DNA of 47,593 nt from Catajapyx aquilonaris (lineage: Eukaryota), in contig JYFJ02002995.1 in assembly GCA_000934665.2 (NCBI GenBank), positions 1-47,593 of the forward strand. Reading direction: 5' to 3'. Position numbers and translations under genes: made by a program. Positions 3,970 through 24,804 of the stretch are shown piece by piece. The notes beneath the pieces are model-generated. The model made no database searches. It saw nothing but the letters and a program-made list of their open reading frames with translations, and had not been told where the DNA came from. The first letter of the stretch is position 1, and each line of letters starts with the position of its first letter.

Positions 3970-4400
3970 TTATTTATATTTTATTCGTTCATTCATTTAC
4001 TGTATTTACTCGATTGATTTATTGATTTATTTACATTTCATTCATTCATTTATTTACTGTATTCATTCATTTACTTTATTTACTTCATTTATTTACATAT
4101 CATACATTTATTACTGTATTCATTCATTTATATTATTTATTGATTTATTTACATTTTATTCATTCATATATTTATATGCTGGACTCATTCGTTTATTTAT
4201 AATTTATGCAGTCAGTAATTATAATTATTATAATTATAATATGCTGATAGTATTCATTCATTTATTTATTCACTGCATTTATTTTAAATTTACATTTGAT
4301 TCATTCGTGTAGCTATTTATTTACTATTTTTATTTATGTACCCTTTATCCATTCACTTATCTATTTATTAACTGTATTTATTTTTGTAATCATTTAATTA
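3970..4400. repeat. AT-rich low-complexity tract (degenerate ATTC/ATTT repeats)
   Basis: Repeated TTCATTCATTTA / TTTATTTA units. Confidence 0.8.
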
Positions 4401-4484
4401 TTTTAACTATTCCACAAGTAAGGTCACATACTTGTTACAGTAGCCTACAATTTATTTCCAATTATCTGAGTGGTTATTGCTGTA

Positions 4485-7400
4485 CTAGTCCTGCGACCGA
4501 TGCGATGAGAGTCTTGCAGTTCGGCCGTAAATATTCCGGACGTACTCTGTGCCGAACTGGCCGTACACAAAAATGTGGTGGGATGGCCAGTCCAGGATCC
4601 GCAGACTCTGAAGACAGGATATTACGAATGTGGGTCCCCCGCACAGCAATACCTGCCGATGAATGATTGTCACTTAGTCGTACAACTAACGAAGTAAGCC
4701 GGAGTTACGTTACCTTCTTCTTGGTGTCGTTCGCGGTTGGAAGAAGCGTTTCCATCTTAGCCGAGTCCAACGTGCCTTCCAAACCGTTCCACAGCGAGTC
4801 TGGGTTGCGCAAGATGTAATTCACGCTTATCCGCTTGTCCGCTGAAATAGGCAGCTGCTAATATAATATAATTCAATATTTAATTCAATGGCAGTTACCT
4901 GCGAATTGGTCCAGCTCATGCTTCAGGAGCAGGTCTTCCTCTCTGTTTGCGCAAAATATGAAGGTGACCGAGGTTGCATCCAGCGGATTGCCGGCTATGC
5001 AGCGGACCAACTGGAGAGCGGGGGTCGCTCCAATTCCGCTGCCTATTAGGATCAGGTGACCTAATGACCTCGGGGTGTATTCGAAACCACCGCAAGGTCC
5101 ACGGAATTCAACCGCATCACCTGGAAATTCATCCCTAGTTAGATCTAGACAGTTTCCATTAACACCCTGTACTTACCAGGTGTCATGTTGGAGAAAACCT
5201 GCGACACTGTCCCTTGACCTTCAAGTCTGGTCGCAATTTCCAGTACGCCAAATTCCTCCGGATCCGATATCGGAGAAAAGTATCGCTCTTCGCTGTTACC
5301 CACACGCATCTGTAAGTTAATACGTCAACAAATTGTCACATTCGCTGGCATGTCTAGCGAGAGTACCTGCACGTACTGCCCGGGAAGGCAGCCCAAGTGA
5401 TCTGCAGATTTCGGCAATGAAAATTGAAGCCGGAATGTTTTAGGTGCGAACTCATCTTTCCTGATTAACGACAGAAATATGTACGTATGCGGATTGAGCG
5501 CCGAGTCGTGCCGAACTCCATTGCATGTGACCTAGGAAAAGAAAATTGTACGTTAACAAGTAATGTTCCACCAACTTGAGCATACCATTGGATAATATAG
5601 CGGCGGAGATGTACTGAACGGATTATCAAAATCCTCGTCGGCTGGTTCATCATTTTCAGGCGCTTGCAATTCCTGAAGTAGTTGCTTAGCCAACTTTTCC
5701 TTCGCAGATCTGTCGAGCTTCTTAACTTCTTGCAGCAAAATTGGCTGATTCGCTTTCCGATCCCTAGTTCGCAATTAAAGTCGGTTTAACAATGCCACTT
5801 TAATTAATCAGCAATTAACGTACCAGTTCTCAACAATTTCATGCCCAAACAGTCCAAGCTTTCCCAGATGCTGTTTGGCAATTTCGTTAGACGGAGACAT
5901 CAACCAACTTGCTCGTGAATCTCTCAGCAATCGCTCAATCCCTGCAAACAATTATTACAATTATTAAACGCGGCGACATATTCTGACGCTTAATTAATTA
6001 CCCAATTCCTCTTTGAAGCCTTCCCCGCCGCATATGCGCATCATGTTGTCGGTCACTTCTGCCGCAGTCTTCGCAGCCACGCATTTAACGATATGGACGT
6101 ACATGCTGTACTGTTGTCTGCAGGGTTTAAAATAATTAGATTGTACGAAGGACGCTATATTCGACAAGGAATATATTACGTCCGTTACAATGTAATTATC
6201 TTCAGCGCACACTCGTCGCAACTACACAATTACCTGCAGCTAAAATCAGGATCCCGATAATGAGTCCAATCGCATCCGTTTGTCAGTTTGTCCATATGTT
6301 GCATATGCGTAAAGAGTGTCATCCGACTAGTAATGGCCGAGGATAGACTTTCACCATATATGTCCTTTAAAAAAAAAAAAAGTCAGGATTAACGAACAAA
6401 TTTTGCGATTACGGTTTGCTCATTACCTGGATCGTCGGGTAGTCACATATTCGGAGACCGACATCGCCGTATGTTTTGGTCGTCACATGTCGTCTGGCTA
6501 GATCTAGAGCGGCCATCGCTATTCCGTTAAAATTAGCGCCTGTTAACGCACCGCCAAGGGGAAGAAGCGTTTCGGCTATAATACGGCCGCCTTCGCCTGC
6601 AAGTAAATCGAACAATAAATGTGCACACCAATTGTTGTCGGTACAACCTTCATGTCCGATCATCCGCTCCTTGTTCAATATTCCCTCGAACACAACAGGC
6701 GACGAGCAATTTCCTCGCAACCCCAAAGCCTTCCAGTCGTCAGCGTACGTTCTCACATTTTCCTGCAACCGTAGCGTGGATAATGCGGCCGGATTAACAT
6801 GCGACGGACTTACTTTAGTCACTAAGTAAAGCGTCGTCAGCGGCTGGCTGGAAACGCACGGTGTGGCCACACTCATGACGTACCAGTCCGCATGTCCGGC
6901 TGAGGTGCACCAAGAACCAAATCGGAGTAATTTGAGATGATCGTCGTCCACGTACTTAGTCTTGGAAGACAGCGGAGCCAGAAAGTGGCCTCCTAGAAAG
7001 TACGTGACATAAAAATATCCCATTGCGACCTTTTTAATGGAAAAATTACCGGTTGCAGGATCACTCAAACTGGACGTTCCCAGCAGCTTCTTCGTGCACA
7101 CGTTCCTTAAAAAGTCCTCCAGAAAAGGACTGCAACTCTTGCTGTCGTACAGCATCAGGAGCGATTGAAGTGCGACGTTGTGCATGGCTGCCAAGTTGGA
7201 AAAGATATTGAGAACGTTAATGTTGAAGTGTCGATTCGCAATACTTACTGTAGACCATTGAAGTGCTGGGGCATCCGTAACGTGCGATGGTTTCGATGAC
7301 CATTGTTGCGCACACCAGGTTTTCTCCCGTTCCGCCCAACTCCTTCGGAATCAGCAGTCCGAGCAGGCCAATCTCGGCAAGGTCATTAATACTGTCTTGC

Positions 7401-7635
7401 GGAAAGGTGCTTGTTTGGTCATAGTACGCCTGTAATTTCAACCGACGGATGTAAGCGAATGTACAAAAGCCGTAGACATAAAGCGTACCGCTCTGGGTCT
7501 GATTCTCGTACGGCAAATCTCCATCACTTCCTTTCGAAGCTCCATTTGACTCGCCGTGAGGAACCAATCTTGGTCGAACTCGTAGCCCAAACCCCAAAAG
7601 GGCTTGTTGCCCCAAGTTTTGATATCGCATGCCAT
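4485..7635 (-). CDS. Acyl-CoA dehydrogenase-fold flavoprotein fused to a C-terminal cytochrome b5 reductase/FNR-like FAD+NAD(P)H domain (15 exons, about 762 aa)
   Basis: Exons 7635-7489, 7429-7249, 7187-7050, 6992-6814, 6762-6648, 6596-6427, 6364-6234, 6117-6002, 5941-5824, 5763-5586, 5531-5367, 5309-5177, 5120-4899, 4841-4714, 4652-4485; all introns GT-AG, 2289 nt in frame. ACAD motifs: GLLGLLIPKELGG, SDPATG, LGLRG, CGGEGF, IERLLRD. Reductase motifs: LPGQY, RYFSP, GTVS, RGPCG, GSGIGATP, LLCGG. Confidence 0.88.
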
Positions 7636-8038: not shown

Positions 8039-9076
8039 TCACGCTTTCAGACTATGAATCGAGTAAATACTTTGCACCTCACCCTCGTGGTCCTGCATGT
8101 GACGCTGCAACTCGGATTCGTCAGTAAAGCCTTTCTTACACTGGATGCAAACATGAGCCGGTTCTTGCGCATGTTCCGCATGTTGCGCATGGGAAAAGGG
8201 CCTTCCGACAGTGTGAGTTCGGATGTGGCGGCCCAACTGGTACTTTTGTCTAAACGCTTTTCCGCACGCCGTACAAGGAAATGGCCTTTCTCCCGTATGG
8301 ATTCGCTTGTGGACGTCCAACCCAGACTTTCGTTTAAACCCTTTCCCACATTCGGTGCAAGAGAATGGTTTTTCTCCCCCGTGAGTCCGCATGTGGATGT
8401 CCATTCGGGACTTTAGTCTAAACCCTTTTCCGCACACAGAACAACGAAACGGAACTTCCCCATTGTGACTATCCATGTGGCTATCCAGTTGGTACTTACG
8501 CTGAAACGTCTTTCCACATTTCGAGCAAGAGTACGCATGGATTTTCATATGATCTTCCAACAGATCTTTTTGATGGAAGCCCTTATCGCACAAGTCGCAA
8601 AAAAATTGCCTAACACCATGCACCGCACTGTGCGTAATCAAATTGTATTTCTTCTTGAAGGCCTTGTTGCATATCTTGCACACATGTTGTCCTTCCGTGG
8701 CGTGAACCTTCATGTGACGCACTAACTGGCGACCAGTTTTAAACAATTTCAAGCATACCTTACAGATAAACACTTTCTGATTTATATTGTCCGCACTTGT
8801 TTGGGACTGTTGCGGTTCTTCAGGTCCTGCGAGTCCCATAGGAAGCTCCCATGCGTTCATTCCAGTCAGCGGTGCATCCTCCTGAAAGAAGCCAACGAAA
8901 TGTATAAATTGTGTGTCGCCACGATTATGTTTCAGGCATACCTGACATGAAAACTCTTCCTCGTTTGCGTAAAGGAACTCATTATAATATGAGCTGTGTT
9001 GCACATTCAGCACTACGTCATGCTCCATCGCCACAAACGGCTGCTCTCCCGTGCGGCTTCTTTGTTGCGGATCATC
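8039..9076 (-). CDS. C2H2 ZF terminal module J (linker exon 9076-8942 + ZF exon 8881-8039; 8 intact fingers)
   Basis: Phase-0 acceptor TTTTTTCAG|GATGATCCG; 60-nt intron; tandem C-x2-C-x12-H-x3-H fingers with TGERPF-type linkers; AATAAA at 7894-7889. Confidence 0.85.
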   Translation of the reverse strand, partial: DDPQQRSRTGEQPFVAMEHDVVLNVQHSSYYNEFLYANEEEFSCQVCLKHNRGDTQFIHFVGFFQEDAPLTGMNAWELPMGLAGPEEPQQSQTSADNINQKVFICKVCLKLFKTGRQLVRHMKVHATEGQHVCKICNKAFKKKYNLITHSAVHGVRQFFCDLCDKGFHQKDLLEDHMKIHAYSCSKCGKTFQRKYQLDSHMDSHNGEVPFRCSVCGKGFRLKSRMDIHMRTHGGEKPFSCTECGKGFKRKSGLDVHKRIHTGERPFPCTACGKAFRQKYQLGRHIRTHTVGRPFSHAQHAEHAQEPAHVCIQCKKGFTDESELQRHMQDHEGEVQSIYSIHSLKA

Positions 9077-9329
9077 CTGAAAAAATCATGTCATGAACTG
9101 TACACACTTATTCGCATGCAAACGTGATTGCCTAAATCATTATGAAACGCATGCTACACCGTCTTTTAAAATGAAACCTCCAACTCCCTACAACGATCAA
9201 TTTATTCGTTCCAAGTACAAATTAGTTTCGGGTCGGACCACAAATCATTGCGATTACAAAACAACATTGCCGGTACATTAGTACAAAGGAGCTCATACAG
9301 AAAGTACATAAAATTTGTGTCCGACAGGT

Positions 9330-10560
9330 TCAAGGAACGTATGAATCGAGTTTCCGCAGCCCTACACCCTCGTGGTCATTCACGTGACGGTGCAGCTCGG
9401 ATTCGTCAGTAAAGCCTTTCTTACACAGCATGCAAACATGAGCCGGTTCTTGCGCATGCACTGCCATGTGCCTGTCCAATCCCTGCTTGTACGCAAACCC
9501 TTTCCCACACACGGCGCATGAAAATGGCCTTTCTCCGGTGTGAGTTCGCATGTGGCGGTCCAACTGGTACTTTTGCGTAAACAATTTGCCACACTCGGTA
9601 CAAGAGAAAGGTCTTTCTCCCGTATGAGTTTGCATGTGACGGTCCAATTGGGACTTTCGTCTGAACAGTTTTCCGCATGAAGCGCACGAGAAAGGTTTTT
9701 CTCCCGTATGAATTCGCATGTGCAAGTCCATCTGGTACTTTCGTCTGAACCTTTTTTCGCATGCAGAGCAAGAATACGGTTTTTCTCCGGTGTGAGTTCG
9801 CATGTGGATGTCCAAGCTAAACTTTTCTATAAACCCCTTTCCGCACTCGTTGCACGGAAAGGGTTTTTCTCCCGTGTGTGTTCGCATGTGGACGTCCAAT
9901 TTTGACTTGTATCTAAACCCCCTTCCGCACATGGAACATGAAAATGGCACTTTTCCAGTGTGAGAAGCCATGTGGCTATCCAATAGGCACTTTTGCTGAA
10001 ATGTCTTTGCACATTCCTTGCAAGGGTACGCATGGCTTTTCAAATGCTTCCCCAAATGGTCCTTTCGAAAGAAGCCCCTATTGCAGACGTCGCAAAAAAA
10101 TCGGCGTGTACCGTGCAATGCACTGTGCCTAGTCAAGTGCGATTTCTCCTTGAAGGATTTGTTGCAGGTGACGCAAACGTGTGGCCTTTCCGGACCAGCT
10201 AAGCAAACCTTACGAGAAGATAATGTCTGATTTACATTAGTGCTCTCGTGATTGTCCGCACTTGTTTGCGACTGTTGCGCTTCTTCAGATAATGAGAATC
10301 CTGCGGCATCGATTCCCGTCAGTGGTTCATCCTCCTGTAAGAATCGAACATACGCTGTATTAGAACACTGGCTGTCATTCAATGCGGTTATTATGTTTAA
10401 AAACCTTCAGGCGTACCTGACATGAAAACCCTTCACGCTTTGGAATGGTGAACAGATGATTATATGAGTCGTGTTGCACATTCAACACATGGTCATGATC
10501 CATCCCGACAAATGGCTGCTGTCCCATGCTGCTTCCTTCTTGCGGATTCGTGTTCAGCAC
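9330..10560 (-). CDS. C2H2 ZF terminal module I (exons 10560-10417 and 10334-9330; 10 fingers, first finger deleted)
   Basis: Phase-0 acceptors (the first, AAG, is less certain); donor TGTCAG|GTACGC; HTGEKP linkers; AATAAA at 9206-9201. Confidence 0.85.
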
Positions 10561-10829
10561 CTTGAAATCGTTAAGAAATGGCTACTTTAATCTCAGAGCC
10601 TATGTTGGCCAGCGTTTGTTATAAAAATGCGGCTAAACAGTATCGTTTTGGCTTGCTCGCACGTCATGTGCCTAAAATACTACTTAAAATGAAACTTACA
10701 AAGAACAAGCCTTGCTGTCCACTACAACCTTCAATTTATTTGTTCAAAGTACAAAATAGTTTTGGTCCGACAACGGATCACTGTGGTTACAAAAATTGAT
10801 TTTTCATTGAAGCCTTTCTTACACAGTAT

Positions 10830-11948
10830 TCACACAAAAGCAGGATCTTTGGCATGCACTGCCATGTGCCTGTCCAATACCTGCTTGTGCGCAAACCCTT
10901 TGCAGCACACTGGGCATGAAAAGGGCCTTTCTCCCGTGTGAGTTCGCATGTGGACAACCAAGTTCGATGTTTCTGTAAACCCCATGCCACACTCAGAGCA
11001 CGAAAAGGGTTTTTCTCCCGTATGAGTTCGCATGTGCCGGTCCAAGCCATACTTGCTTCTAAACCCTTTTCCGCACTCAGTGCACGAAAAGGGTTTTTCT
11101 CCGGTGTGAGTTCGCATGTGCTTGTCCAAGTGAGACTTGCTTCTAAACCCCTTTCCGCACGCAGTGCATGAAGAGGGTTTTCCTCCCGTATGAGTTCCCA
11201 TGTGCTTGTCCAAGTCGGACTTTAGTCTAAACCCTTTTCCGCACACAGTACATGAAAACAGGGCTTCTCCCATGTGAGAAGACATGTGGCTATCCAATTG
11301 GCACTTTTGATCAAACGTCTTTTCACATACCCTGCAAGAGTATGGGTGGGTTTTCATATGCCTCCCCAACAGGTCCTTTCGAAAGAAGCCCTTATTGCAC
11401 ACTTCACAAAAAAATTTCCTTTCGCCGTGCACCTTGCTGTGCAGAGTCAAATTCTTTTTATACTTGAATGATTTGTCACAGATCATGCACTGGTGTGGTC
11501 CTTCATTTGGGTGGACCCTCATGTGAGACCTTAATTCGCAACCAGTTTCAAACAACTTCAAGCATACGTTACAAGAAAAGACTTTCTGATTTACGTTAGC
11601 GCTCTCTGGATTGTCCAAACGCTGTGCTTCTTCAGGTGCAGAGAAGCCAGAAGGCAGCTCTCCTACGGCATCGATTCCAGTTGGCGGTTCATCCTCCTGA
11701 AAGACAACACATTATATATTAGAACACATTGCTGTACGACTACGTACAGTCTTTCATTTGTGTGCAGCCGCATGACTCTTTAAGATGCGATTATATTTAA
11801 ACAACTTCAGGCGTACCTGACATGAAAACTCTTCCTGATTGTACGAGTCGTGTTGCACATTCAGCACTATTTCATGCTCCATCACTATCTCATGCTCCAT
11901 CATGACAAATAGCTGCTCTTCCATGCTGCTTCCTTCTTGCGGATCCTC
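10830..11948 (-). CDS. C2H2 ZF terminal module H (exons 11948-11817 and 11696-10830; 9 fingers, last finger lost to a TGC>TGA stop)
   Basis: Phase-0 acceptors and donor; ZF array; premature TGA where sister modules have the Cys of the terminal CILCKKGF finger; AATAAA at 10740-10735. Confidence 0.85.
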
Positions 11949-13113
11949 CTGTAATTATCAGTCATGTACTGTACACAGTCATTCGCATGCAAAAGTGAAT
12001 CCCACAAAAGTCCTTTCTTCACACCCCAATAATGAAGACTGCTATGAATTCGCATCATTCTGTATGAGTCGTTGGTATTGTCATTATTAGTTATTATAAA
12101 AATGCTTGGCTTGCACATTGCCTACATGTGGCTAAATAATAATTAAGAAATGCTCGCTACACCGTAATTAAAATGAAAGATCAACTCTGCCTACAATGAG
12201 CAATTTATTCGTTCCAAGTACAAATAGTGTTGGTCGGACCACAATTAATTGTGATTACAAAAGGATATTGCGGTGCAATGATTAATAGGCCTACCTCACA
12301 CTATTTAAAAATAAAAAAAATTGAGGTCAGAAGAAGCTCATACAGAAAGTAGACAGCAAGTGAAGAAGTCTTCAATTGTCTACATACACTAGCGTCTTGA
12401 ACTACACCAGCCATTTTAATTGCAGCGCAGCAAAATAATTAATGCTCTTTAAATGAGACAGCTGCAACTTTAAAAGAAATAATAATAATAATAATAAACA
12501 TAAAGGTTTGACCTGAGAAAATGTGATGTTGCTCATGTTTTGTACGTAAAGTGAGATTTTCTTGTACAAAAAAAAAAAAAAGTATGAAACAGATACATAT
12601 TATAATGCTTTTTAACATGATTGACAATACTTATATCCTGATGTGATTGCACATTTTTTTTCACATCATGTGTGTACATCTACAGTACAAAATAATACTT
12701 AAAAATTAGTTATTTTCCTTATCAATTCAGAATAATATATTTCAAAGACTATTCTTTTGATTTTTATAAGGTCCGACTGAAAATGCCTTTTGTTAAACCA
12801 GTGCCGTTGCAACTTGCTTAACAATGAAAATAATGACGATAACATTTGGACCTTTCAAAAAAAAAAAAAAAACATTACAGGTATCTACCAGGCATTCGGC
12901 TACATACAATATCAAAAGAAAGCAAAAAGTAAAGAAAAAAAACAACCATTGAATGTTCCAACTGCTGTGGAGGCATGTACGACAACAATGAACAAGAACA
13001 GAGGACATGAATTGCTTGACGCGGACAAGTTCTGATTACTTCGGTACATCCCTCCCAGCAAGTTAAATTAAGAGGGGAAAAAAAAAAAAAAACTTCAAAC
13101 AAAACCCAAGACA

Positions 13114-14666
13114 TCACAACGATGAATCGAGCAATACTTTCCAGAGTCCTTGCACCACACCAGCGTGGTCCTTCATGTGAAGCTGCAAATCGGACTTTTC
13201 ATTGAAACCCTTCTTACAGAGGATGCACACAAAATCCGGATCTTGCGCATGCCCTGCCATGTGCTTAGTCAATCCGTGCTTGTACACAAACCCTTTGCAG
13301 CACACCTTACATGAAAAGGGCCTTTCTCCAGTGTGAGTTCGCATGTGGATGCCCACTTGGGGCTTTCGTCTAAACCCTTTTCCGCACACGGTGCACGGAA
13401 AGGGTCTTTCTCCCGTATGAATTCGCTTGTGGACGTCCAATTGGTACTTGCGTCTAAACCCCTTGTCACACACCGTACAAGAAAAGGGTTTTTCTCCAGT
13501 GTGCGTTTGCATGTGACTGTCCAATTGGTAATTGCGTTTAAACCCTTTGCCACACACGGTGCAAGGAAAAGGTCTTTCTCCCGTATGAATAAGCATGTGG
13601 TAATCCAACCTGTCCTTTCTTCTGAACCCTTTGCCACACACGGTGCAAGAAAAAGGTTTTTCTCCGGTGTGAGTTCGCATGTGGATGTCCAAGTCCGACT
13701 TGCGTCTAAACCCCTTTCCGCATGCAGTGCAAGAAACAGGTTTTTTTCCCTTATTGTGAGTTCGCATGTGCCTGACCAAGTGGTCCTGTCGTCTAAACCC
13801 TTTTCCGCAGACAGTACAAGAAAACGGCACTTCTCCAGTGTGACTCTCCATGTGGCTATCCAATTGGCTCTTAAGCTTAAATGTCATTCCACATTCATTG
13901 CAAGAGTACGATGCATGACTTTTCAAATGCTTCCCCAAGGAGTCCTTTCGAGAGAACCCCTCATCGCAAATTTCACAAACAAATTTCCTTACCCCGTGAA
14001 CCTTGCTGTGCCTAGTCAAATTCCACTTATTCTTGAAGGACATGTTGCAGATCATGCACACATGCGGCACTTTCTTTGTGTGAACCTTCACGTGAGACCT
14101 TAATTGGCGACCAGTTTTAAACAACTTCATGCATACCTTACAAGTAAACCGTTTCTGATTTGCATTAGCGCTCTTCTGGTTGCCCGCACTTGTTTGGGAA
14201 TGTTCAGGTGCTGCAAATCCCAGAGGAAGCTCGCTTATGTCGATTCCAGTCAGCAATTCCTGGAAGACAAACAAGTGTATTAGAACACACTGCTGCACGA
14301 CTACTTAAGGCCCATACACACAGGCCGTCGACGGTTTTGGTTTTTGGTCGCGTTGACGCCGCGGACCAATCATGACCCACGTAAACAAGCTCTAAACAAT
14401 GGGTTGCGCTTGTTTACATGGGTCATGATTGGTCCGCGGCGTCAACGCAACCAAAAACCAAAACCGTCGACGGCCTGTGTGAATGGGCCTTAAGTCTTTC
14501 ATCATGAACACCTTTAGGCATACCGTACCTGACATGAAAACTCGTCCTGATTTGCATATGTGAACTCGTGATTGTAAAACGAGTTGTGTTGAACATTCAG
14601 CACATCCACAGGCGCCATCAGGACAAATGGCTGCTCTCCCATGCTGCTCCCTTCTTGTGGATCATC
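13114..14666 (-). CDS. C2H2 ZF terminal module G (exons 14666-14529 and 14259-13114; 12 fingers)
   Basis: Phase-0 acceptors and donor; ZF array; AATAAA at 12209-12204. Confidence 0.85.
14309..14489. mobile_element. Near-perfect palindromic MITE with TTAA flanks, in the intron of module G
   Basis: TTAA-GGCCCATACACAGGCCGTCGACGG...CCGTCGACGGCCTGTGTGAATGGGCC-TTAA, with arms of about 80 bp; absent from the homologous intron of module H. Superfamily (Kolobok- or Harbinger-like) not determined. Confidence 0.85.
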
Positions 14667-14845
14667 CTGAAAAAAAGCAGTCATGTACAGTACGCACTCA
14701 TTCGCATGCGAAATTGAACACCACAAGCGGTTCATCCACACCCAATAATTTAGACAGCTAAACAGAATTGTTTTGGCTTCTTCATTGCCGCTACACCGTA
14801 CTTAAAATGAAACTTCCAAGACTCAACTTTCACTACAATCTTCAA

Positions 14846-14903
14846 TTTATTCGTTCCAAGTACAAATAGTTTCGGTCCGACCACAACTGATTGCGATTAC
14901 AAA
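14846..14903 (-). promoter_or_regulatory. Conserved polyadenylation cassette (representative copy; one per ZF module)
   Basis: Minus strand TTTTGTAATC...GTGGTCGGACC...TTTGTACTTGGAACGAATAAA. AATAAA copies at plus-strand 7889, 9201, 10735, 12204, 14846, 16200, 18324, 20620, 22430 and 24280. Confidence 0.75.
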
Positions 14904-14989
14904 ATGACACTGCAAGTGCAACGTGTCGTTAAACCAATTTAAAAAAATTCATCAATGTAGAAAGATGAATTGACCGGTTATGGAACATA

Positions 14990-16021
14990 TTATGTCTTGG
15001 ACTCTGAATCGATTAATACTTTCCACAGCCCTTGCACCACACCCGCGTGGTCCTTCATGTGCTCCTGCAAATCGGACTTTTCATTGAAACCCTTCTTGCA
15101 CAGTATGCAAACAAAAGCGGGATCTCGCGCATGCCCTGCCATGTGCTTAGTCAATCCGGTCTTGTACGCAAAACCTTTGCAGCATACCTTACAAGTAAAG
15201 GGTCTTTCTCCAGAGTGAGTGCGCATGTGACGGCCCAAGTGCGATTTTTGTCCGAACCCTTTTCCGCACACAGTACAAGAAAAAGGTGCTTCCCTCTTGT
15301 GAGTTCGCACGTGCTTGTCCAAGTGGTACTTTTGTCGAAACCCTTTTCCGCACACAGTACAAGAAAAAGGTCTTTCTCCCGTGTGAGTTAGCATGTGCCT
15401 GTCCAATTTGCACTTTTCTATAAACCCCTTTCCGCATACAGTGCACGGAAACGGTTTTTTCCCCGTATGAATTCCCATGTGCATGTCCATGCGGCACTTG
15501 TGTAAAAACTCTTTTCCGCACACCGTACAAGAAAACGGCACTCCTCCATTGTGAGAAGAAAACATGTGGTTATCCAGTTGGTACTTATGCTCAAACACCT
15601 TTTCACATTCCAAGCAAAAGTACGCATGTGTCCGCAAATGACCGGCCAACTGGTCCTTTCGAAAGAATCCCTTATTGCATCCGTCACAAAAAAATTTCGT
15701 TCCGCCATGAACCTTCCTGTGCCTATTCAAATTCTGTTTATTCTTGAAGGATTTGTCGCACGTAACGCAAACGTGTGGTCTTTCCTTCGTATGAACCAGC
15801 AAGTGAGACTTCAAGTTATTATACTTTTTAAACACCTTCAAGCATACCTTACAAGTAAAGACTTTCTGATTTACATTAGTGGTATCGTGATTGTCCGCGC
15901 TTGTTCGGGCGTGTTGGGCTTCTTCAGGCAGCTCCTCGTTGTACGAGTTGTGTTGCACATTCAACACAGCATCATGCTCCAATGGCTGCTCTCCCGTGCT
16001 GCTTCCTTCTTGCGGATCCTC
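14990..16021 (-). CDS. C2H2 ZF terminal module F (single fused exon; 10 fingers)
   Basis: Phase-0 acceptor TTTTCAG|GAGGATCCG; the linker exon runs directly into the ZF exon with no intron; AATAAA at 14851-14846. Confidence 0.85.
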   Translation of the reverse strand, partial: EDPQEGSSTGEQPLEHDAVLNVQHNSYNEELPEEAQHARTSADNHDTTNVNQKVFTCKVCLKVFKKYNNLKSHLLVHTKERPHVCVTCDKSFKNKQNLNRHRKVHGGTKFFCDGCNKGFFRKDQLAGHLRTHAYFCLECEKVFEHKYQLDNHMFSSHNGGVPFSCTVCGKEFLHKCRMDMHMGIHTGKKPFPCTVCGKGFIEKCKLDRHMLTHTGERPFSCTVCGKGFRQKYHLDKHVRTHKREAPFSCTVCGKGFGQKSHLGRHMRTHSGERPFTCKVCCKGFAYKTGLTKHMAGHARDPAFVCILCKKGFNEKSDLQEHMKDHAGVVQGLWKVLIDSESKT

Positions 16022-16753
16022 CTGAAAAGAAGCAGTCATGTACTGTACGTACATATTCGCATGCAAAAGTGAACGCCACATTATAATTATTATAAAAAAA
16101 TGCTGCTAAACACTATTGTTAATTGCCTAAAATCATTAAGAAATGCGTGATACACCGTGTAATGAAACTTCCAAGACCAACTCTCCCTACAATGGTCAAT
16201 TTATTTGTTCCAAGTACAATAATAGTTTTGGTCGGACCAAATTGCGATGACAAACAAATGATTAATACCTTACACTAATCAAATAATTGTTGGGAGGTCA
16301 TACGAACGTCATACATAAAGTACATGAGATGGGGGAAGGGAAGTCTTCAATAATTGTCTACGCACTACCATTATCAAATTCGGAAGAAAATATTTTAAAA
16401 AGACTTTCCCATGGTCCAACTGACAATTTATTTGTTACAAGTGCCGTCGCAATTAGCTTAACAATAAAAGTAATTAATTGACGTGGAAGGAACATTGACC
16501 AAACGCATTTTCCAAGCAGCTGAAAAGAATATTCGGCGCTGCGTGTTATACCAAAAGTAAAGAATGGAAAAGTATAGAAAGTGCTACCACAAATATGAAC
16601 AAGATGATTCGGATTAATTCGATCCCTCGGCAGCATTTAGCGAGTCAAATTAAGGAGAGACGAAACGACAAAACAAAGAGAGAATGTGGCACTTGGAAGA
16701 CGTAACAAAAATCACGATTTGTCTCTTACTTATTAAGGAACATACGTATCCGA

Positions 16754-17969
16754 CTATGAATCGAATAGTACTTTCCACAGTCCTTGCACCTCACCCGCGT
16801 GGTATTGCATGTGCTTCTGCAAATCGCATTTTTCAGTAAATCCCTTCTTACACAGTATGCAAACAAAAGCTGGATCATGCCCTGCCATGTGCTTGTCAAG
16901 TTCGGTCTTGTCCACAAAACCTTTGCTACTCTCTCCAGTGTGAGTTCGGATGTGGCGGTCCACTTGGGGCTTGTATCTAAACGCTTTTCCGCACACGGGG
17001 CATGGAAACGGTTTTTCCCCCGTGTGAATTCGCATGTGGATGTCCAAGGCGGACTTGCCGATAAACCCTTTGCCACACACGCTGCATGGAAAAGGTTTTT
17101 CTGCCATGTGAAATCGCATGTGCTGGTTCAAGTAGGACTTTTTTCTGAACCCTTTTCCGCATACTGTACAAGAAAAGGGTGCTTCTCCCATGTGAGTTTT
17201 CATGTGCATGTTCAATCCTTGCTTGTACACAAACCCTTCGCCACACGTGGTGCAAGAAAAGCGTTTTTCTCCCGTATGAGTTTGCATGTGGATGTCCATT
17301 TGGTACTTTCGTCTAAACCCTTTTCCGCACACGGAACAAGAAAACGGCACTTCTCCAGTGTGAGAAAACATGTGCTTATCCAGTTGGGACTTATGCTTAA
17401 ACGACTTGTCACATTCTGTGCAAGAGTATGCGTGGCTTTTCAAATGAACCACCAACTGGTCCCTTCGACAGAAGCCCTTATTGCAGACGGCACAAAAAAA
17501 TTTCTTTACACCATGCAACGCCATGTGCTTAGTCACAGCTTGTTTATCCTTGAAGGATTTGTTGCAGATTATGCACTCCAGTGGTCCTTCATTTGTGTGG
17601 ACCCTCGTGTGAGACTTTAATAGGCGACCACTTTTAAACAACTTCAGGCATACCTGACAAGAAAACACTTTCTGATTTACATTAGAGGTCTCGTGATTGT
17701 CCGAACTTGTTTGGAAGTGTCGGGATTCTTCAGGTCGTGAAAATCCAGCAGGCCTGCGTCCTGCGTCGAATCCAGTCGGCAGCTCATCTCGCTGCAAGAC
17801 AACGCACGGTATATTAGAACACTGCTGCTGCCTTTTTAAGATGTGATTATGGTTAAACAACTTCAAAGCATACCTGATCGCATGAATTGGGTTTCACTTT
17901 CAGCACATCGTCACGCTCCATCATGACAAACGACTGCTCTCCCATGCTGCTTCCTTCTTGCGGATCCTC
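16754..17969 (-). CDS. C2H2 ZF terminal module E (exons 17969-17874 and 17791-16754; 10 intact fingers)
   Basis: Phase-0 acceptors and donor; penultimate finger lacks its Cys pair; AATAAA at 16205-16200. Confidence 0.85.
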
Positions 17970-17990
17970 CTGAAAAGTAGAAGTCACGTA

Positions 17991-18141
17991 CAGTGTTGGA
18001 CGTTAATTGGGGCATACTTCCAACGACATTTTCCGAAGCGGCAGAAGAAGGAATCTTGCTCGTCCGGCTCATCTTCGATTCCTTATTCTGCCGCTTCGGA
18101 AAATGTCGCCAGCAATATGACTCGATTAATGCTCAACACTG
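17991..18141. mobile_element. Palindromic MITE with TA target duplication
   Basis: TA-CAGTGTTG...CAACACTG-TA; internal perfect arms CGACATTTTCCGAAGCGGCAGAA / TTCTGCCGCTTCGGAAAATGTCG; absent from the homologous position of sister modules. Confidence 0.8.
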
Positions 18142-19204
18142 TACTTATTCACATCCAAAAGTGAATGCCACTTAGCATTGTCATTAGTTATTATTATTAA
18201 AATGCTGCTAAACAGTATTGTTCATTGCCAGCTTGTCAGGTGGCTAAATCATTTAAGAAATATTCTCGCTACACAGTACTTGAAATGAAACTTCCCAGAC
18301 CAACAATTCCCTACAATGGTCAATTTATTCGTTCCGAGTACAAAATTTAATTTTAGTCACTGTGATTACAAAATGAGATTGCCAGTGCAATGATTTGAAA
18401 AATTGCTTCAAGTCATAAGAAAAGGTCTTAAAAGTACATAGACATGAGGGGGAAGGAGTCTTCAATTGTCTACGTACACTCTTAGTCTTACTCCATCAGT
18501 CTAATCGTACAATTCTCTCTGGCATTTAAAAAAAACCTTTCAAGTTTAAACGATCAAACAGATACAAAATTATAATACTCTTTAACATGATTGGCAAAAT
18601 AACCTGATGTGATTTTTGCACAAATTCCACATCACGTGTGTATACCTAGAGCTCAAATAATACCTAAAAATATATTAGTTGCCTTTTTTTTTTTCCTTAT
18701 CAATTCGGCAGAAAATATTTTAAAGACTTATTTGTTTTGATTTTCAGAAGGTCCGACTGTGAATTTGTTACCAGTGCCGTTGCAACATCCTTAACAATGA
18801 AAATAATGACAATGTTATTTAGACCTTTAAAAAAAAAAAAGTGCGGAAATGTTTTCTCATCCAAAACAACATTTTCCAAGCAGCTGACGCGACAGCATTA
18901 GAAACAAACAAAAATAATAATAAAAAACTGATAATATTGCGCGCTACGTACAATACCAATTGTAGACACTGCCTTTTTTTTTTTAAACCAACGGTTTTTT
19001 AACAAGTTCCAACTGCTCTACCACAACAATGAACAAGACGAGTCGAAGCAGAGGACATTTAAATGCTTGACTCTAACCAGTTCTGAGCTGATTATCTCCA
19101 TAGCATTCGACATCATTTAGCAAGTTAAGGGGGGAGGGGGAAAAAAAAAGTTGAAACATAAAGAGAATACGGCACCCAAGACATCACAGATCTTTCGTAT
19201 CCGA

Positions 19205-20466
19205 CTATGAATCGAGCAATACTTTCCAGAGTCCTTGCACCACACCCGCATGGTTCTTCATGTGCTGATGCAAATCGGACTTTTCATTGAAACCTTTCTT
19301 ACAGAGTATGCACACAAAATCTGGATCTTGCGCATGCACTGCCATGTGCTGGTCCAAGTTGGACTTTTGCGAAAACCCTTTGCAGCACACCTTACAAGAA
19401 AAGGGCCTTTCTCCCGTGTGAATGCGCATGTGCTGGTCCAAGTTGGACGTTTGCGAAAACCCTTTTCCGCACACCGTACAAGAAAAGGGTTTTTCTCCCG
19501 TGTGAGTTCGCTTGTGGACGTCTAAGCCGGACTTTCGTCTAAACCCTTTTCCGCACACAGTACAAGAAAAGGGTCTTTCCCCCGTATGAATTCGCTTGTG
19601 GACGTCCAAGCCGGACTTTCGTCTAAACCCTTTTCCGCACACCGTACAAGAAAAGGGTTTTTCTCCAGTGTGAGTTCGCATGTGCTGGTCCAAGGCGGAC
19701 TTTTTCGAAAACCCTTTTACGCACGCAGTACACGGAAATGGTTTTTCTCCCTTGTGAGTTCGCATGTGCCTGACCAAGTGGTCCATTCGTGTATACCTTT
19801 TTCCACATACAGTACAAGAACGAGGCACTTCTCCAGTGTGAGAAAACATGTGGATATCCAGTTGGTACTTAAGCTTAAACGACTTTTCACATTCCTTGCA
19901 AGAGTATGATGCGTGACCTTTCAAATGCCTCCTCAAGTGGTCCCTCTGCAAGAAGACCTTATTGCACACTTCACAAATAAATTTCTTCCTTACACCATGC
20001 ACCTTGCTATGCCTAGTCAAATTAGGTTTAGACTTGAAAGATTTGTTGCAGATCATGCAAACGAATGGTCTTTCCATCGAATGAACCAGCATGTGATTCT
20101 TTAAGCTCTGATTATTTTTAAGCAACTTGAAGCATACCTCACAAGAAAAGGATTTCTGATTTACATTAGTGCTCTCGTCATTGTCCGCGCTTGTTTGTGC
20201 TTTTCCAGGTGCTGCGGGGTTAAGTCCAGTCAGCATTTCCTCCTCCTGAAAGACAACACATTGGACATTAGAACACACTGCTGCAAGACTTGGTACGTAG
20301 CCACATAACTTTTTACGATGCGATCATGTTTAAACACCTTCAAGCGTACCTGACATGAAAAGGCTTCCCGGTTGTACGAGTTGCGTTGCACATTCAGCAC
20401 CACGTCAGGCTCCATCATGACAAACGACTGCTCTCCCGTGCTGCTTCCTTCATGCGAATCCTCCTC
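19205..20466 (-). CDS. C2H2 ZF terminal module D (exons 20466-20350 and 20245-19205; 11 fingers)
   Basis: Phase-0 acceptors and donor; ZF array; AATAAA at 18329-18324. Confidence 0.85.
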
Positions 20467-21008
20467 CTGAAAAGTAGCAGTCCTGTACTGTACATACTTA
20501 TTCGCATGCAAAAAGTGAATGCCTCACAAGTCCATCATCCACACCTCAACAATGAAGATGCCTAGCTACGCATGAAACTTTCCAAGATCAAGACCCAACA
20601 TCCACTTACAATCATCCAATTTATTTTGTTCCAATTACAAATAGATTTTGGTCAGACCACAACTCATTGAGATTACAAAACGACACTGCCGCTGCAACGA
20701 TTAAACCCTTCAAGTAATTTAAAAAAATGTTTCAGGTCATCAAGTCATCCAGAAAGTACATATGACAGGGCGGAGTCTTCAATTGTCTACGTACACTCTA
20801 CTGTTGTACTACCCAGCAGCCTAATCGCAGTGCAGTGTAAGTATTAATGCTTTTTTTAAAAATTAGGCCGTCTCACTTTTTTAAAATCGCAATAATATAA
20901 ACGTTGCATGAAGTGAAATTTTCTATCGCACAACAGCATTAAATTAAGAAAAAAATAAAATTGAACGAACGTCCACTTAGAAGACATCGCAATTCTTTCG
21001 TTATCTGA

Positions 21009-22167
21009 CTATGAATCGAGCAATACTTTCCAAAGTCCTTGGACCACACCAGCGTGGTCCTTCATGTGCTGCTGCAAATCGGACTTTTCATTGAAACCTT
21101 TCTTACAGAGTATGCACACAAAAGCCGGATCTTGCGCATGCCTTGCCATGTGCTTGTCCAATCCAGCCTTTTGTACAAACCCTTTGCGGCACACCTTACA
21201 TGAAAAGGGCCTTTCTCCCGTGAGAGTTCGCATGTGGACGTCCACTCGGGACTTGTATCTAAACCCTTTCCCACACACCGTACAAGAAAAGGGTGTTTCT
21301 CCCTTATGAGTTCGCAAGTGCTGGTCCAAGTTGGACTTTTGCGAAAACCCTTTTCCGCACACCGTACAAGAAAAGGGTTTTTCTCCCATGTGAGTTTTCA
21401 TGTGCATGTTCAATGCTTGCTTGTACACAAACCCTTCGCCACACGTGGTGCAAGAAAAGGGTTTTTCTCCCGTATGAGTTCGCATGTGGATGTCCATGTG
21501 GAACTTTCGTCTAAACCCTTTTCCGCACACGGAACAAGAAAACGGCACTTCTCCAGTGTGTGATAACATGTGGTTATCCAGTACGTACTTATGCTTAAAC
21601 GACTTTTCACATTCCTTGCAAGAGTATGCATGGCTTTTCAAATGATCCGCCAACTGGTCCTTCCGAAAGAAGCCCTTATTGCAGACGTCACAAAAAAATT
21701 TCCTTACACCATGCAACGTCATGTGCCTCTTCAAATTGTGCTTAATCACGAAGGATTTCTTGCAGATTATGCACACATGTGGTCTTTTCAACGTGTGAAA
21801 CTTCATGTGGTACGTTAACTGCCCATTATTCTTAAACACCTTCAAGCATACCTGACAAGAAAACCCTTTCTGATTTACATTAGTGCTCTTGTGTTTGTCC
21901 AAACGGTGTGCTTCTTCAGGGGCTGCGAATCCAGATGGCAGCTCCCATGCGTTGATTCCAGCCAGTGCTTCATACTTCTGAAAGATAAATAGACAACACG
22001 ACGAATATTAGAACACATTGCGGATGTGATTATGTGTTCTTCAAGCATACCTGACATGAAAACTCTTCCTCGCTGAATGAGTCGGGTTGCACCTTCAGCA
22101 CCACGTCAGGCTCCATCATGAAAAACGACTGCTCTCCCGTGCTGCTTCCTTCTTGCGGATCCTCCTC
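21009..22167 (-). CDS. C2H2 ZF terminal module C (exons 22167-22051 and 21977-21009; 10 fingers, one lacking its last His)
   Basis: Phase-0 acceptors and donor; ZF array; AATAAA at 20625-20620. Confidence 0.85.
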
Positions 22168-23082
22168 CTGAAAAAAATAAAGTCGTCTACTGTACACACT
22201 TATTCGCATGCAAAGGTCCTTAATCCACACCACAATAATGAAGGCGATTTTGCACACTTCTGTACGAGTTACCTGACGTCCAACAACCTGACCACTTGTG
22301 CTTGGAACACATCCCCGGCATCACCTTGTATGATTTTCCTGCACACAATACAAGGAATTGTCTGGATGTGTTTGGGCAATCAAGTCGCACATGAAAATGA
22401 ACACTAGTTCTGCTTTCGCCTTCACTCCTTTTATTCATCCAAGGTACAAATACCCAGAAAAAAAAAAAAATGCGGCTCAAAACAAAAAATCATACGAGAA
22501 AAGACAAAATAAAAACCCCACAATGCCTACGCAATTGGAGGGGGGGAAATTATCAGCAAGAACAATACTTTTTCCTTCCAAATAATAAGTACGATATAAA
22601 ATAAAAGAGCTGTAACTGAAAAACCTATGATGATTATAAAGTCTTTGAACACATTATTACACCTTTCTTCTCTCGCATCCGAGAACTAATCGGTTTTAAT
22701 TTAACCGATGTGTGTACAGATGGGAGGTAATAATACTGTTAAATTAAATCCTCATTCTCCACACGGGAGTATTGCACCCTCTTTTTTTCCGCATATTAGT
22801 TTGAACATTAATCCTAAGCAAGTTTTCTCCAAATATATTATATCCGAATATTTATAAAAATATAATTCAACAAACAACTTTCGCATCGACTAACCCTGAG
22901 AAAAAGTGTGGAATTGACTGATCGATTCAGACTGATATGACTGAATCGAAATTTCTTTTTTGATTAGTAAGTTGCCTCTCCCTTCAAAAATTTCATCCAA
23001 AAAAATTAAACGTCATTAATCAAAAACCTAAAAAGACCGTTTTCTTTTTATTTTTAGAGGCAACGTCTCCGCATGTATCTTA

Positions 23083-23685
23083 TCAGTTGAGCAGCACTTT
23101 CCGGATGCCGTTTGCATGAACCTTCATGTGCCGCTTCAAATCAGTCGCTTCAGGAAAATCTTTCTTGCACAATATGCAAGAGAATTTTTTCTGCCCGTGA
23201 GTTAGCATGTGTTTCTTCATTGCAAGCTTCGTATGAAACACTTTACTGCACACCTCACATGAAGAGGTTAGTTCTTCACCGTGAATACGACACACATGGA
23301 CAGCCAAGTGCCACTCTTGCGCATAACCTTTTCCGCACATGCTGCATTTGAATGACTTTTTCCCTCCGAACCGCTCCTTCGAATTTTGTTTCTTTTCCGA
23401 ACAATGAGCGAGTAATTTTCCTACATGGACCTTTTTGCAATGCTGAACGAAAGTGATCCTATTCATGAAGCCTTTCTTGCAGATGTCGCACACATGACAT
23501 GTGCCTGTATGAGTACGCATATGTTTTCCTAAATGGCAATGCATGTAAAACGACCTGTCACATACGCGGCAAACAAATTCTTTCTTATTCACCTTAGTGC
23601 CAACGAATGGCTCTTCATTACGTTCTTCTTGTGCCGCATTTCCTGGCGGCGGTGGTCCAGCTTCATCTCCACTCTCTTCATCGTC
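23083..23685 (-). CDS. C2H2 ZF terminal module B (single exon; 5 fingers)
   Basis: Phase-0 acceptor TTCTCAG|GACGAT; ends in the shared CILCKK terminal finger; AATAAA cassette at 22435-22430. Confidence 0.8.
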   Translation of the reverse strand, partial: DDEESGDEAGPPPPGNAAQEERNEEPFVGTKVNKKEFVCRVCDRSFYMHCHLGKHMRTHTGTCHVCDICKKGFMNRITFVQHCKKVHVGKLLAHCSEKKQNSKERFGGKKSFKCSMCGKGYAQEWHLAVHVCRIHGEELTSSCEVCSKVFHTKLAMKKHMLTHGQKKFSCILCKKDFPEATDLKRHMKVHANGIRKVLLN

Positions 23686-24645
23686 CTGAGAAGTAAAAGA
23701 CATTTACACGCTTGTTGCAGAAAGCCCTCTACACGTAATATTAGAACCTCCGGGATGCATTAATTCTCATCGAGTGAGACGCAGCTTCCAACATCGTCAG
23801 GATACTCATTACATGCATTTTGGAGATTCACGACAAGTAAAATGCTACTTGTAAACAAGAGAAAAGAACCACCACCTGTCATGCAGTTAACAGTGTTTCA
23901 AAATGTCTGAATCGGTTACTTGGGTACGCCCAGGGTAATGCTACGTACAAAAGTGCAGCAAAACATGCCTCGCAGTGAAGAGTTGGTGATAAATTCTACA
24001 CTTAAAAATACTTACTCCGAAGTTATTAATTTTCCCTCTTACATGTTTCACATGCAACAAAAAATAGAAAAGTGCACAGAAAAATCATACGTGTTCACCT
24101 GAAGGCCCAGCAGCAACGTACTACAATTATTTGAGCCAGAGCTGTAGACATGTCCGCATGGTTTCAAATGAACTCGGTACTTTTCCAAACCCAGTTCGAT
24201 TAGTCATCCTTTATACAAACATGCCTAAAGGAAAAGGACACCCAAACAAAATGGTGTTGATTTCATTCCTTCGTTTTTTTTTATTCATCAAAAGTACAAA
24301 CGGCCATTTCAGATCAAAATAAAATAATAAAAAAACAGAAAATATTACGTGGCCCTTTTCCAAATGCAACAATATCAGATCCGAATAATGATATGACCAT
24401 AACACATATCTAACTGTGCGTATGCTACTCTTGTTCTCTGCATATGCCACATCATGACGCAAAAAAAAAAAATGAACGGCCAATATTGTTATGTTGCAGA
24501 GTCCATTCCTGGCAGATCGCTTTTTTTTCTTTTGACTAACCCTGAGAAATACAAGCACGGAATGGCCCCCTACAATTCACATTGGACTAATACGATTACG
24601 CACCGAATATATTGGAAAAAAAACAACCCTGAATAATAGCATTTG

Positions 24646-24751
24646 CCATATTTGACGGCATATAAGACGGCACCCGTATTTCAAGATTAAAAATCTTTCG
24701 CATTGCCATTTTTTGTGGGGATAATTGCGTCTTACGTGCCGTCAACTTCGG
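24646..24751. mobile_element. Second copy of the Tc2/pogo-like MITE, in the 3' UTR of module A
   Basis: CCATATTTGACGGCATATAAGACG...CGTCTTACGTGCCGTCAACTTCGG-TA; same TIR as 911-1064. Confidence 0.65.
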
Positions 24752-24804
24752 TAATTGGAAGAGCACATGGCGCATAAATGCTTGAGATACTGAGCCGTAC
24801 TTTT

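Follow-up and report, generated by a model that had tools for sequence, protein, structure and literature searches.

The 47,593-nucleotide stretch of Catajapyx aquilonaris DNA analysed here (contig JYFJ02002995.1 of assembly GCA_000934665.2, positions 1 to 47,593, forward strand; hereafter the window) carries on its minus strand one gene that joins, in a single polypeptide, a domain with the acyl-CoA dehydrogenase (ACAD) fold and a reductase of the FNR/cytochrome-b5-reductase type. The gene runs from an ATG at 7635 to the end of a TAG at 4485 and comprises 15 exons (2289 nt, 762 codons plus the stop), separated by 14 introns of 51-116 nt that all have GT..AG ends (Table 1). An earlier reading of this DNA, made from its letters alone (hereafter the sequence-only reading), had proposed one continuous 15-exon frame from 7635 to 4485, and the same coordinates and exon count were obtained here. 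The spliced product of the gene is 38.8-46.2% identical to 21 full-length database proteins (759-789 aa), in alignments that span practically the entire chain (residues about 6-762). Introns 3, 4 and 5 (57, 51 and 51 nt) keep the reading frame without a stop codon, and exons 3-6 (7187-6427, minus strand) form a 253-codon read-through from which a gene caller based on open reading frames (ORFs) would derive a wrong product of about 261 aa. A Pfam search with this read-through frame returned nothing useful; used as a query against databases, the same frame retrieved 24 relatives.

Transcript evidence was drawn from the assembled contigs of one public run (X1), the type of which is not on record. 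These contigs are spliced at 8 of the 14 predicted introns (1, 6, 7, 9, 10, 11, 12 and 13), at matching coordinates and reading CT..AC on the plus strand, and a loose contig end matches exon 15 across intron 14. The junction between the two halves had been singled out in the sequence-only reading, which proposed looking for a single transcript across 5824-5531; one 483-nt contig links exons 9, 10 and 11 and thereby spans the end of the ACAD half, the linker and the beginning of the reductase half. Coverage by X1 is absent over 6620-7174 and below 4711, and the placement of introns 2-5 is a prediction from homology. It is practically certain, in our judgment, that the fusion is genuine and expressed.

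The same composition was recovered from domain models and from other animals. Pfam models were run on 12 in-frame exon pieces, with matches in exons 2, 8, 11, 12 and 13 (Table 1) and nothing relevant in the remaining pieces. According to precomputed Pfam annotation, 22 of the 24 relatives contain all four domains (Acyl-CoA_dh_N, Acyl-CoA_dh_1, FAD_binding_6 and NAD_binding_1). Pfam, homologues and a structure model agree with the claim, already made from the letters, of an ACAD-fold domain and a complete FNR/cytochrome-b5-reductase module in one chain. The architecture search that had been suggested alongside that claim finds the fusion in crustaceans (decapods, stomatopods, amphipods including the hadal Hirondellea gigas, isopods, krill, barnacles and one ostracod), in the sea spider Nymphon, the annelid Owenia, the brachiopod Lingula and the chiton Liolophura, and in four corals. 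In the databases these proteins are called 'uncharacterized' or are named after one of their halves.

The ACAD half lacks the catalytic base of the dehydrogenases whose fold it shares. In HMMER alignments, the segment 'vmGpsnev' of the Procambarus orthologue P0002 falls under 'iyEgtsei' of 2dvl and 'iyEgtnqi' of 3pfd, and in the family alignment Ser408 of the window protein occupies the column of the MCAD-type (loop J-K) catalytic Glu; the LMSPSNEI motif that the sequence-only reading had assigned to this position is indeed found there. The column holds Gly, Ala or Ser in every row, comprising the window protein and 20 orthologues, and likewise in an alignment with four animal and nine bacterial members. 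At the helix-G column that we take to be the IVD/LCAD Glu site, the window protein has Leu and P0002 has Tyr, in line with the earlier statement that no Glu sits there, and the predicted W-x2-LG-x-R loop reads WKALGLR. With Glu at neither the MCAD-type nor the IVD-type position, the protein is predicted not to be a catalytic ACAD (EC 1.3.8.x).

An AlphaFold model of P0002, built from a 20-sequence family alignment (pLDDT 85.3, pTM 0.86), shows a three-domain ACAD fold with Foldseek TM scores of 0.82-0.87 to classical ACADs, on which the ACAD half superposes with a root-mean-square deviation (rmsd) of 2.1-2.6 Å over about 370 residues. The best structural matches of P0002 (4kto, 5lnx, 2jif and 2dvl) reach Z scores of 44-45 and rmsd values of 2.1-2.3 Å over 363-370 residues. 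The fused proteins retain the W-x-T-x-G flavin loop, whose counterpart in the window is the SWCTSAG of exon 4, and the G-G-x-G-(F/Y)...R-D motif of classical ACADs. They differ from them in having Ser (window) or Gly/Ala (relatives) in place of the Glu, in an added N-terminal extension and C-terminal helix, and in the apparent lack of a presequence: the protein begins where the bacterial homologues described below begin in the alignment, with nothing added before that point, which counts against a role in mitochondrial beta-oxidation.

The C-terminal 250 residues of the window family match NADH-cytochrome b5 reductases (Physarum 2eix; human CYB5R3) over their whole length. Residues 506-747 of P0002 match 2eix at 2.6e-43, and its modelled reductase half superposes on that structure with a Foldseek TM score of 0.91. 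In the window, FAD_binding_6 and NAD_binding_1 are accompanied by the three motifs that we take to define the FNR/NADH-cytochrome b5 reductase family, R-x-Y-(S/T), G-x-G-x-x-P and C-G-x-x-x-(M/F). The module differs from NADH-cytochrome b5 reductase in that it has neither a membrane anchor nor a cytochrome b5 partner domain, ends in an extra tail of about 25 aa, and stands behind an ACAD-fold domain. The region between the halves had been described as a charged linker, a description that holds for its second part only. The first part of exon 10 encodes a conserved C-terminal helical extension of the ACAD half (helices 437-446 and 449-469 in the P0002 model) that is also present in bacterial proteins; the acidic stretch that follows, with its D-F-x-N-P-F motif, is the true linker and is confined to fused forms.

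The closest relatives of the ACAD half outside the fused proteins are bacterial. A family profile search retrieved 53 stand-alone bacterial homologues of 462-486 aa, with sequence identities of 57-61% to P0002 and of 39.2-45.4% to the ACAD part of the window protein. They have both extensions of the fused forms, at the N-terminus and as a helix at the C-terminus, and likewise the motif without Glu. The window protein is colinear with this family and has its W-G...F-W-G-L-G extension, its W-(V/L)-M-x-P-(S/T)-N-E motif without Glu and its C-terminal helix; the longer N-terminal motif of exon 1, K-x-W-G...F-W-G-L-G-Y-E-F-D, is likewise common to the bacterial homologues. Bacterial members encoded beside tdm, the gene for trimethylamine N-oxide (TMAO) demethylase, include P0096 of Virgifigura deserti, P0074 and P0079. 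Described as 'acyl-CoA dehydrogenase family' or 'AidB-like' proteins, they are colinear with the window protein through both extensions (39-45% identity) and share the motif R-D-x-K-A-G-W-V-M-G-P-S-N-E with the family, but they stand alone (about 465 aa), the PF01613 reductase being a protein of its own. The best NCBIfam match of the bacterial proteins, Rv1679_FadE16, stays below its cut-off of 600 bits, with scores of 204-211.

A gap in score separates the family from other proteins. A phmmer search with P0096 against 1.84 billion representative sequences returned 172 proteins at E ≤ 1e-30, with family members at 330 bits or more and the nearest outsiders at 238 bits or less. Those outsiders (P0152 and P0174, e.g. 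from Sporosarcina, 382-413 aa) also lack the Glu, reading MGPTNEV and MGPASEL, which points, on sequence, to a wider Glu-less clade. In the family tree, the main bacterial clade forms a single group (support 0.999-1.0) adjoining certain fused sequences and the coral/lophotrochozoan branch, and with seven outsider ACAD-like proteins as outgroup it falls inside the eukaryotic sequences. Because basal support ranges from 0.27 to 0.83 and branches are long, no direction of transfer between bacteria and animals was drawn from this topology.

A genome scan restricted to one genome per species yielded 339 relatives, from which 80 loci were kept, 46 of them with full flanks; their record titles include Alphaproteobacteria, Acidobacteriota, Latescibacterota, Gemmatimonadota, cyanobacteria, Zoogloea and Obscuribacterales. 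Neighbouring genes were counted by clustering the ORFs of these loci and then running tblastn with representative neighbours. Tdm (a DUF1989 plus GCV_T protein) is encoded nearby in 53 of the 80 loci and in 37 of the 46 with full flanks, and a PF01613 (Flavin_Reduct) flavin reductase in 46 and 29, respectively. Less frequent are N-methylglutamate-pathway genes (27/80, or 17/80 for two of them; 22-25/46), an ammonium-type transporter (21/80; 18/46) and a DAO-type oxidoreductase (15/80; 14/46), and a Tmm-like FMO occurs once (1/80; 1/46). A typical order, in locus L048, is mgsABC, ACAD-like gene, tdm, reductase, amt, gmaS. The Tdm neighbours exceed the NCBIfam equivalog cut-off for TMAO demethylase (1234 and 1218 bits versus 1100), and the reductase neighbour, a short protein of the HpaC/HsaB/StyB type, is similar to the reductases that serve the ACAD-fold oxygenases C2-HpaH and HsaA (8.6e-50 and 3.3e-49). 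With reductase and Tdm as the commonest neighbours, the arrangement is that of a two-component flavin monooxygenase. In a further difference from classical ACADs, genes of CoA-ester metabolism were not found among the conserved bacterial neighbours.

Several rarer neighbours were recorded in the same loci. In 12 alphaproteobacterial loci (L001, L003, L004, L005, L007, L009, L010, L012, L013, L016, L018 and L020), a divergent member of the histidine-ammonia-lyase family is encoded just upstream of the reductase/ACAD-like pair and in divergent orientation; the example at L003:5516-7039 (minus strand) scores 179 bits against a HutH-type cut-off of 524. Enzymes of this family release trimethylamine (TMA) from betaines such as ergothioneine, and the upstream gene may encode a TMA-releasing lyase acting on a betaine, a tentative lead. 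A serine-hydroxymethyltransferase-like gene (324.7 bits versus a cut-off of 335) stands between the ACAD-like gene and tdm in five loci (L013:9459-10820, minus strand; L012, L017, L018 and L020), and its product may handle the one-carbon unit released by Tdm. A PhyH-family (Fe/2-oxoglutarate dioxygenase) gene in six loci, at least four of them cyanobacterial (L076:4191-5099, minus strand; L028, L041, L071, L075 and L077), is another candidate for the demethylation step that remains unfilled in these clusters. A fatty-acid-desaturase-family gene was seen nearby in 16 of the 80 loci.

Among known systems, the window protein would work most like a group D two-component flavin monooxygenase made single-chain, a likeness of working principle and not a demonstrated kinship by sequence. 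Group D enzymes (C2-HpaH, HsaA, DszC/TdsC, DnmZ, KijD3/ORF36) share with the family an ACAD fold without the dehydrogenase base, and N-oxygenation is known among them. Gene adjacency suggests that the bacterial homologues, like group D enzymes, depend on a short HpaC/HsaB-type flavin reductase made as a protein of its own, and both group D traits, the base-less ACAD fold and a dedicated NAD(P)H:flavin reductase partner, can be recognised in the sequences. The family differs from group D in that sequence matches are weak and in that the animal reductase is fused and of the unrelated FNR/cytochrome-b5-reductase type; in animals, a fused NADH reductase of this kind has replaced the separate one. 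From adjacency in bacteria and fusion in animals we infer that oxygenase and reductase are functionally coupled. In the proposed mechanism, the N-terminal 430 residues would constitute the oxygenase, connected by the helical extension and the acidic linker to the NADH reductase. NADH would reduce the flavin of the reductase module, and reducing equivalents would then reach the ACAD-fold flavin either as free reduced flavin or directly from flavin to flavin. There, reaction with O2 would give a C4a-hydroperoxide, from which one oxygen atom would be transferred to the nucleophilic heteroatom of a small substrate, in the family most likely that of TMA, yielding TMAO. We consider it likely that the protein is an oxygenase of the two-component type; the full reading, a self-sufficient flavin monooxygenase that most likely N-oxygenates TMA or a related amine, is the one we favour and think probably correct. 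That the window copy itself makes TMAO seems unlikely.

The choice of TMA as family substrate follows from genomic context and from flavin chemistry. The genes tmm, tdm and dmmDABC were described by Lidbury et al. in 2017, according to whom bacterial tmm is normally grouped with tdm and dmm is missing from many marine bacteria (PMC5520151). The bacterial homologues adjoin tdm in methylated-amine clusters that mostly lack the usual Tmm, which makes TMA their likeliest substrate. Canonical Tmm (NF058570) exceeds its cut-off in only 1 of 15 carrier genomes, which are largely metagenome-assembled, so that absence is weak evidence. A comparison of Tmm and Dmm complementarity was tried as a means of deciding the substrate and failed, both canonical enzymes being mostly absent; with the steps on either side of Tdm mostly unfilled, gene content alone cannot decide between TMA and dimethylamine (DMA). 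A flavin hydroperoxide oxygenates the lone pair of a nitrogen, whereas demethylation of DMA requires attack on carbon, and this chemistry favours conversion of TMA to TMAO over the DMA reaction. The reaction proposed is that of the class B enzymes Tmm and FMO3, which differ from the family in having an unrelated fold and in being single-component NADPH enzymes.

The window copy has diverged from its family. A set of 123 columns conserved at 95% or more was defined among 56 fused proteins; the window protein keeps 112 of them and departs at 11, and no other full-length member departs at as many, the misassembled P0009 excepted. The departures include four aromatic or His residues (P0002 numbering: Trp158 to Leu, Trp275 to Phe, His295 to Tyr and Trp359 to Tyr), the originals of which are found in 53 of 53 bacterial proteins and in at least 95% of the 56 animal ones; in the family these residues might form an aromatic box for the methylammonium group, which is a guess on our part. 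Crustacean sequences fall into several paralogue clades. The window protein has the longest branch of all (0.88), and its grouping with a barnacle paralogue is loose (support 0.12). Frame, splice sites, the flavin-loop, NADH and FAD motifs, and expression are all intact, and no second copy of the gene was found within the window. We read the window copy as a fast-evolving paralogue that is neofunctionalising rather than dead; given its divergence, inferences from the family may not hold for it, and its present substrate may be a related one. Another fused form that has diverged very far is P0132 of the ostracod Notodromas monacha (882 aa); it shares 38% identity with the bacterial protein and 36% with the window protein, and its Glu-site motif, WLMSPSVEV, resembles that of the window.

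Not all of the evidence agrees with a TMA monooxygenase, and the divergence just described, with its 11 departures, four exchanged invariant residues and extreme branch length, is a difficulty where the window copy is concerned. For the family, all of the best 50 structural matches listed by VIA-align are classical ACAD-family dehydrogenase entries (Z 40.9-45.4). In phmmer searches, the first 420 residues of P0002 match classical ACADs at about 1e-19 and group D enzymes more weakly (5z8t/5gj7 1e-8, DnmZ 2e-8, TdsC 6e-5, with KijD3 also within the range of 1e-8 to 6e-5). Group D oxygenases did not appear among the matches listed by Foldseek or VIA-align, a result that does not exclude kinship. 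Neither Tdm nor the reductase lies nearby in 5 of the 46 loci with full flanks, the DMA-monooxygenase/demethylase family PF11927 was found in only 2 of the 15 carrier genomes (again, largely metagenome-assembled), and in genome G001 the family gene coexists with two true Tmm genes, of which one is a neighbour of tdm in the same locus. The carriers also include freshwater and land animals (Procambarus, Cherax, Macrobrachium, Hyalella and Armadillidium), so that a simple marine-osmolyte story does not fit all of them.

Part of this evidence could also be accommodated by a self-sufficient flavin monooxygenase with another reaction, acting in the family on DMA or, in the window copy, on a secondary amine, on a sulfide such as dimethyl sulfide (DMS) or on a xenobiotic. 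Acinetobacter ACAD-fold oxygenases are reported to oxidise DMS and dimethyl sulfoxide (PMC13352529), and the absence of PF11927 from 13 of the 15 genomes, the Tmm genes already present in G001, the altered aromatic and His residues and the multiplicity of crustacean paralogue clades all fit such a reaction. Against the DMA variant, however, Tmm is missing from 14 of the 15 genomes and the DAO-type FAD oxidoreductase of 15 of the 80 loci could take the DMA step; moreover, a flavin hydroperoxide acting on DMA should yield a hydroxylamine and not methylamine plus formaldehyde. We regard a different oxygenation as a minor possibility, well below TMA oxygenation by the family. A more distant prospect is that the window copy is a superfluous duplicate on its way to becoming non-functional through drift, transcribed but no longer performing the family's task. 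This would explain its long branch and its departures from conserved columns, but is hard to reconcile with a 762-codon frame that has remained intact over 15 exons with standard splice sites, with splicing in X1 as predicted, and with the retention of 112 of 123 conserved columns, among them those of the flavin-loop, NADH and FAD motifs; we think it very improbable.

The structural proximity to true ACADs lends itself to two further explanations. The sequence-only reading had left the choice between a single-chain two-component monooxygenase and an NADH-driven reductase. In the latter case, electrons would travel from NADH via the flavin of the reductase to the ACAD-fold flavin, which would reduce an enoyl-CoA-type double bond, an N-oxide or the like without O2. 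The potential of NADH lies far below that of the enoyl/acyl-CoA couple, which makes this direction feasible, and acryloyl-CoA reductase is among the weak NCBIfam matches of the bacterial protein (4.6e-31, 108 bits versus a cut-off of 640). The proton-transferring Glu, needed in either direction, is nevertheless absent, no CoA-ester genes were found among the conserved neighbours of the bacterial homologues, and the reductase paired with them belongs to the free-flavin type typical of oxygenase systems. The reductase and Tdm neighbours in bacteria, together with the single transcript in the window, favour the monooxygenase, and an NADH-driven reductase appears improbable. Slighter still than the chance of a drifting copy is that of a functional acyl-CoA dehydrogenase or oxidase that relies on an unusual catalytic base and in which the fused reductase would serve as electron outlet instead of electron-transferring flavoprotein. 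A candidate base exists in the near-invariant Glu located five residues before the helix-G site (IIAET in the window; P0002 position 261), a residue shared by at least 90% of 20 fused proteins and by the window protein, and ACADs are the best structural matches. Yet electron transfer from acyl-CoA to NAD+ would be thermodynamically unfavourable, the Pfam model of the ACAD middle domain matches none of the 24 fused proteins, no mitochondrial presequence is seen in the N-terminal alignment, and the bacterial context is one of amine and not of fatty-acid catabolism.

Elsewhere in the window, at least ten tandem ORFs for C2H2 zinc-finger proteins (206-426 aa) occupy 8039-26085, immediately upstream of the gene and in its orientation, and a BTB/POZ-domain ORF lies beyond them. 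Just downstream of the stop codon of the gene, at about 4000-4440, the DNA is AT-rich and of low complexity, with AAATAAAT and GAATGAAT-like units.

Table 1. Positions of the exons of the fused gene and of other features in the window. X1, transcript contigs of the public run; aa, residues of the predicted protein; Pfam E-values refer to single exon pieces.
Feature	Position	Strand	Residues (aa)	Description
Exon 1	7489..7635	-	1-49	Start ATG 7635; X1 contig covers 7488-7699 and is spliced to exon 2
Exon 2	7249..7429	-	50-109	N-terminal helical ACAD domain; Acyl-CoA_dh_N 1.4e-11; intron 1 joint in X1
Exon 3	7050..7187	-	110-155	3' end in SDPATGGH loop that runs on into exon 4; no X1 cover
Exon 4	6814..6992	-	156-215	Middle beta domain; SWCTSAG 6915-6895; Leu160 (6981-6979) in place of family-invariant Trp
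Exon 5	6648..6762	-	216-253	WKALGLRGN loop 6735-6709; Asn217 in place of conserved Glu
Exon 6	6427..6596	-	254-310	Helix G region; Phe276 (6531-6529) for invariant Trp; Tyr296 (6471-6469) for invariant His; intron 6 joint in X1
Exon 7	6234..6364	-	311-353	Joints of introns 6 and 7 in X1
Exon 8	6002..6117	-	354-392	C-terminal helical ACAD domain; Acyl-CoA_dh_1 1.3e-4 (22.6 bits versus cut-off 22.4); Tyr360 (6101-6099) in place of invariant Trp
Exon 9	5824..5941	-	393-431	LMSPSNEI 5903-5880, Ser408 5897-5895; exon 9-10 joint in X1
Exon 10	5586..5763	-	432-491	Helical C-terminal extension, then acidic linker
Exon 11	5367..5531	-	492-546	FAD-binding barrel begins; FAD_binding_6 0.042 (alone below cut-off)
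Exon 12	5177..5309	-	547-590	FAD-binding barrel, ERYFSPIS 5288-5265; FAD_binding_6 0.0014 (alone below cut-off); joints of introns 11 and 12 both in X1
Exon 13	4899..5120	-	591-664	NADH-binding domain, GSGIGATP 5043-5020; NAD_binding_1 4.5e-7; joints in X1
Exon 14	4714..4841	-	665-707	Intron 13 joint in X1
Exon 15	4485..4652	-	708-762 + TAG	LCGGPT 4646-4629; conserved tail of about 25 aa
AATAAA hexamer	4451..4456	-		28 nt past the stop; possible polyadenylation signal, read from sequence
C2H2 zinc-finger ORF 1	8039-9034	-		
C2H2 zinc-finger ORF 2	9330-10382	-		
C2H2 zinc-finger ORF 3	10830-11618	-		
C2H2 zinc-finger ORF 4	13114-14298	-		
C2H2 zinc-finger ORF 5	14990-16081	-		
C2H2 zinc-finger ORF 6	16754-17866	-		
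C2H2 zinc-finger ORF 7	19205-20278	-		
C2H2 zinc-finger ORF 8	21009-21902	-		
C2H2 zinc-finger ORF 9	23083-23703	-		
C2H2 zinc-finger ORF 10	24805-26085	-		
BTB/POZ-domain ORF	29545-30114	-		4.6e-9

A search of the literature, with subscription journals and bioRxiv supplements outside its reach, found no account of this family, of a fusion between an ACAD and a cytochrome b5 reductase, or of an ACAD-fold monooxygenase of TMA or DMA. In the available text of a 2018 review (PMC6165268), natural oxygenase-reductase fusions are named for group E only. If the reading proposed here is correct, the fused protein would represent a kind of flavin monooxygenase not described in animals, an ACAD-fold oxygenase made self-sufficient by fusion with an FNR-type reductase, and a natural fused N-oxygenase driven by NADH would be of interest for biocatalysis. 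Surveys of methylated-amine cycling that rely on tmm only would, in that case, miss bacteria of several phyla in which the stand-alone form occurs.

TMAO is an osmolyte and pressure protectant, the level of which climbs with depth in deep-sea crustaceans (PMC5893861), and on the reading proposed here the origin of TMAO in invertebrates would become testable with a named gene. The broadest form of the proposal is tentative and, in our view, rather unlikely to hold in full: many invertebrates may make TMAO or related N-oxides with a fused ACAD-fold oxygenase of bacterial type, not with an FMO of the vertebrate type, the gene having passed between bacteria and animals in an old transfer and having since multiplied in crustaceans into paralogues with new substrates, the window copy possibly among them.

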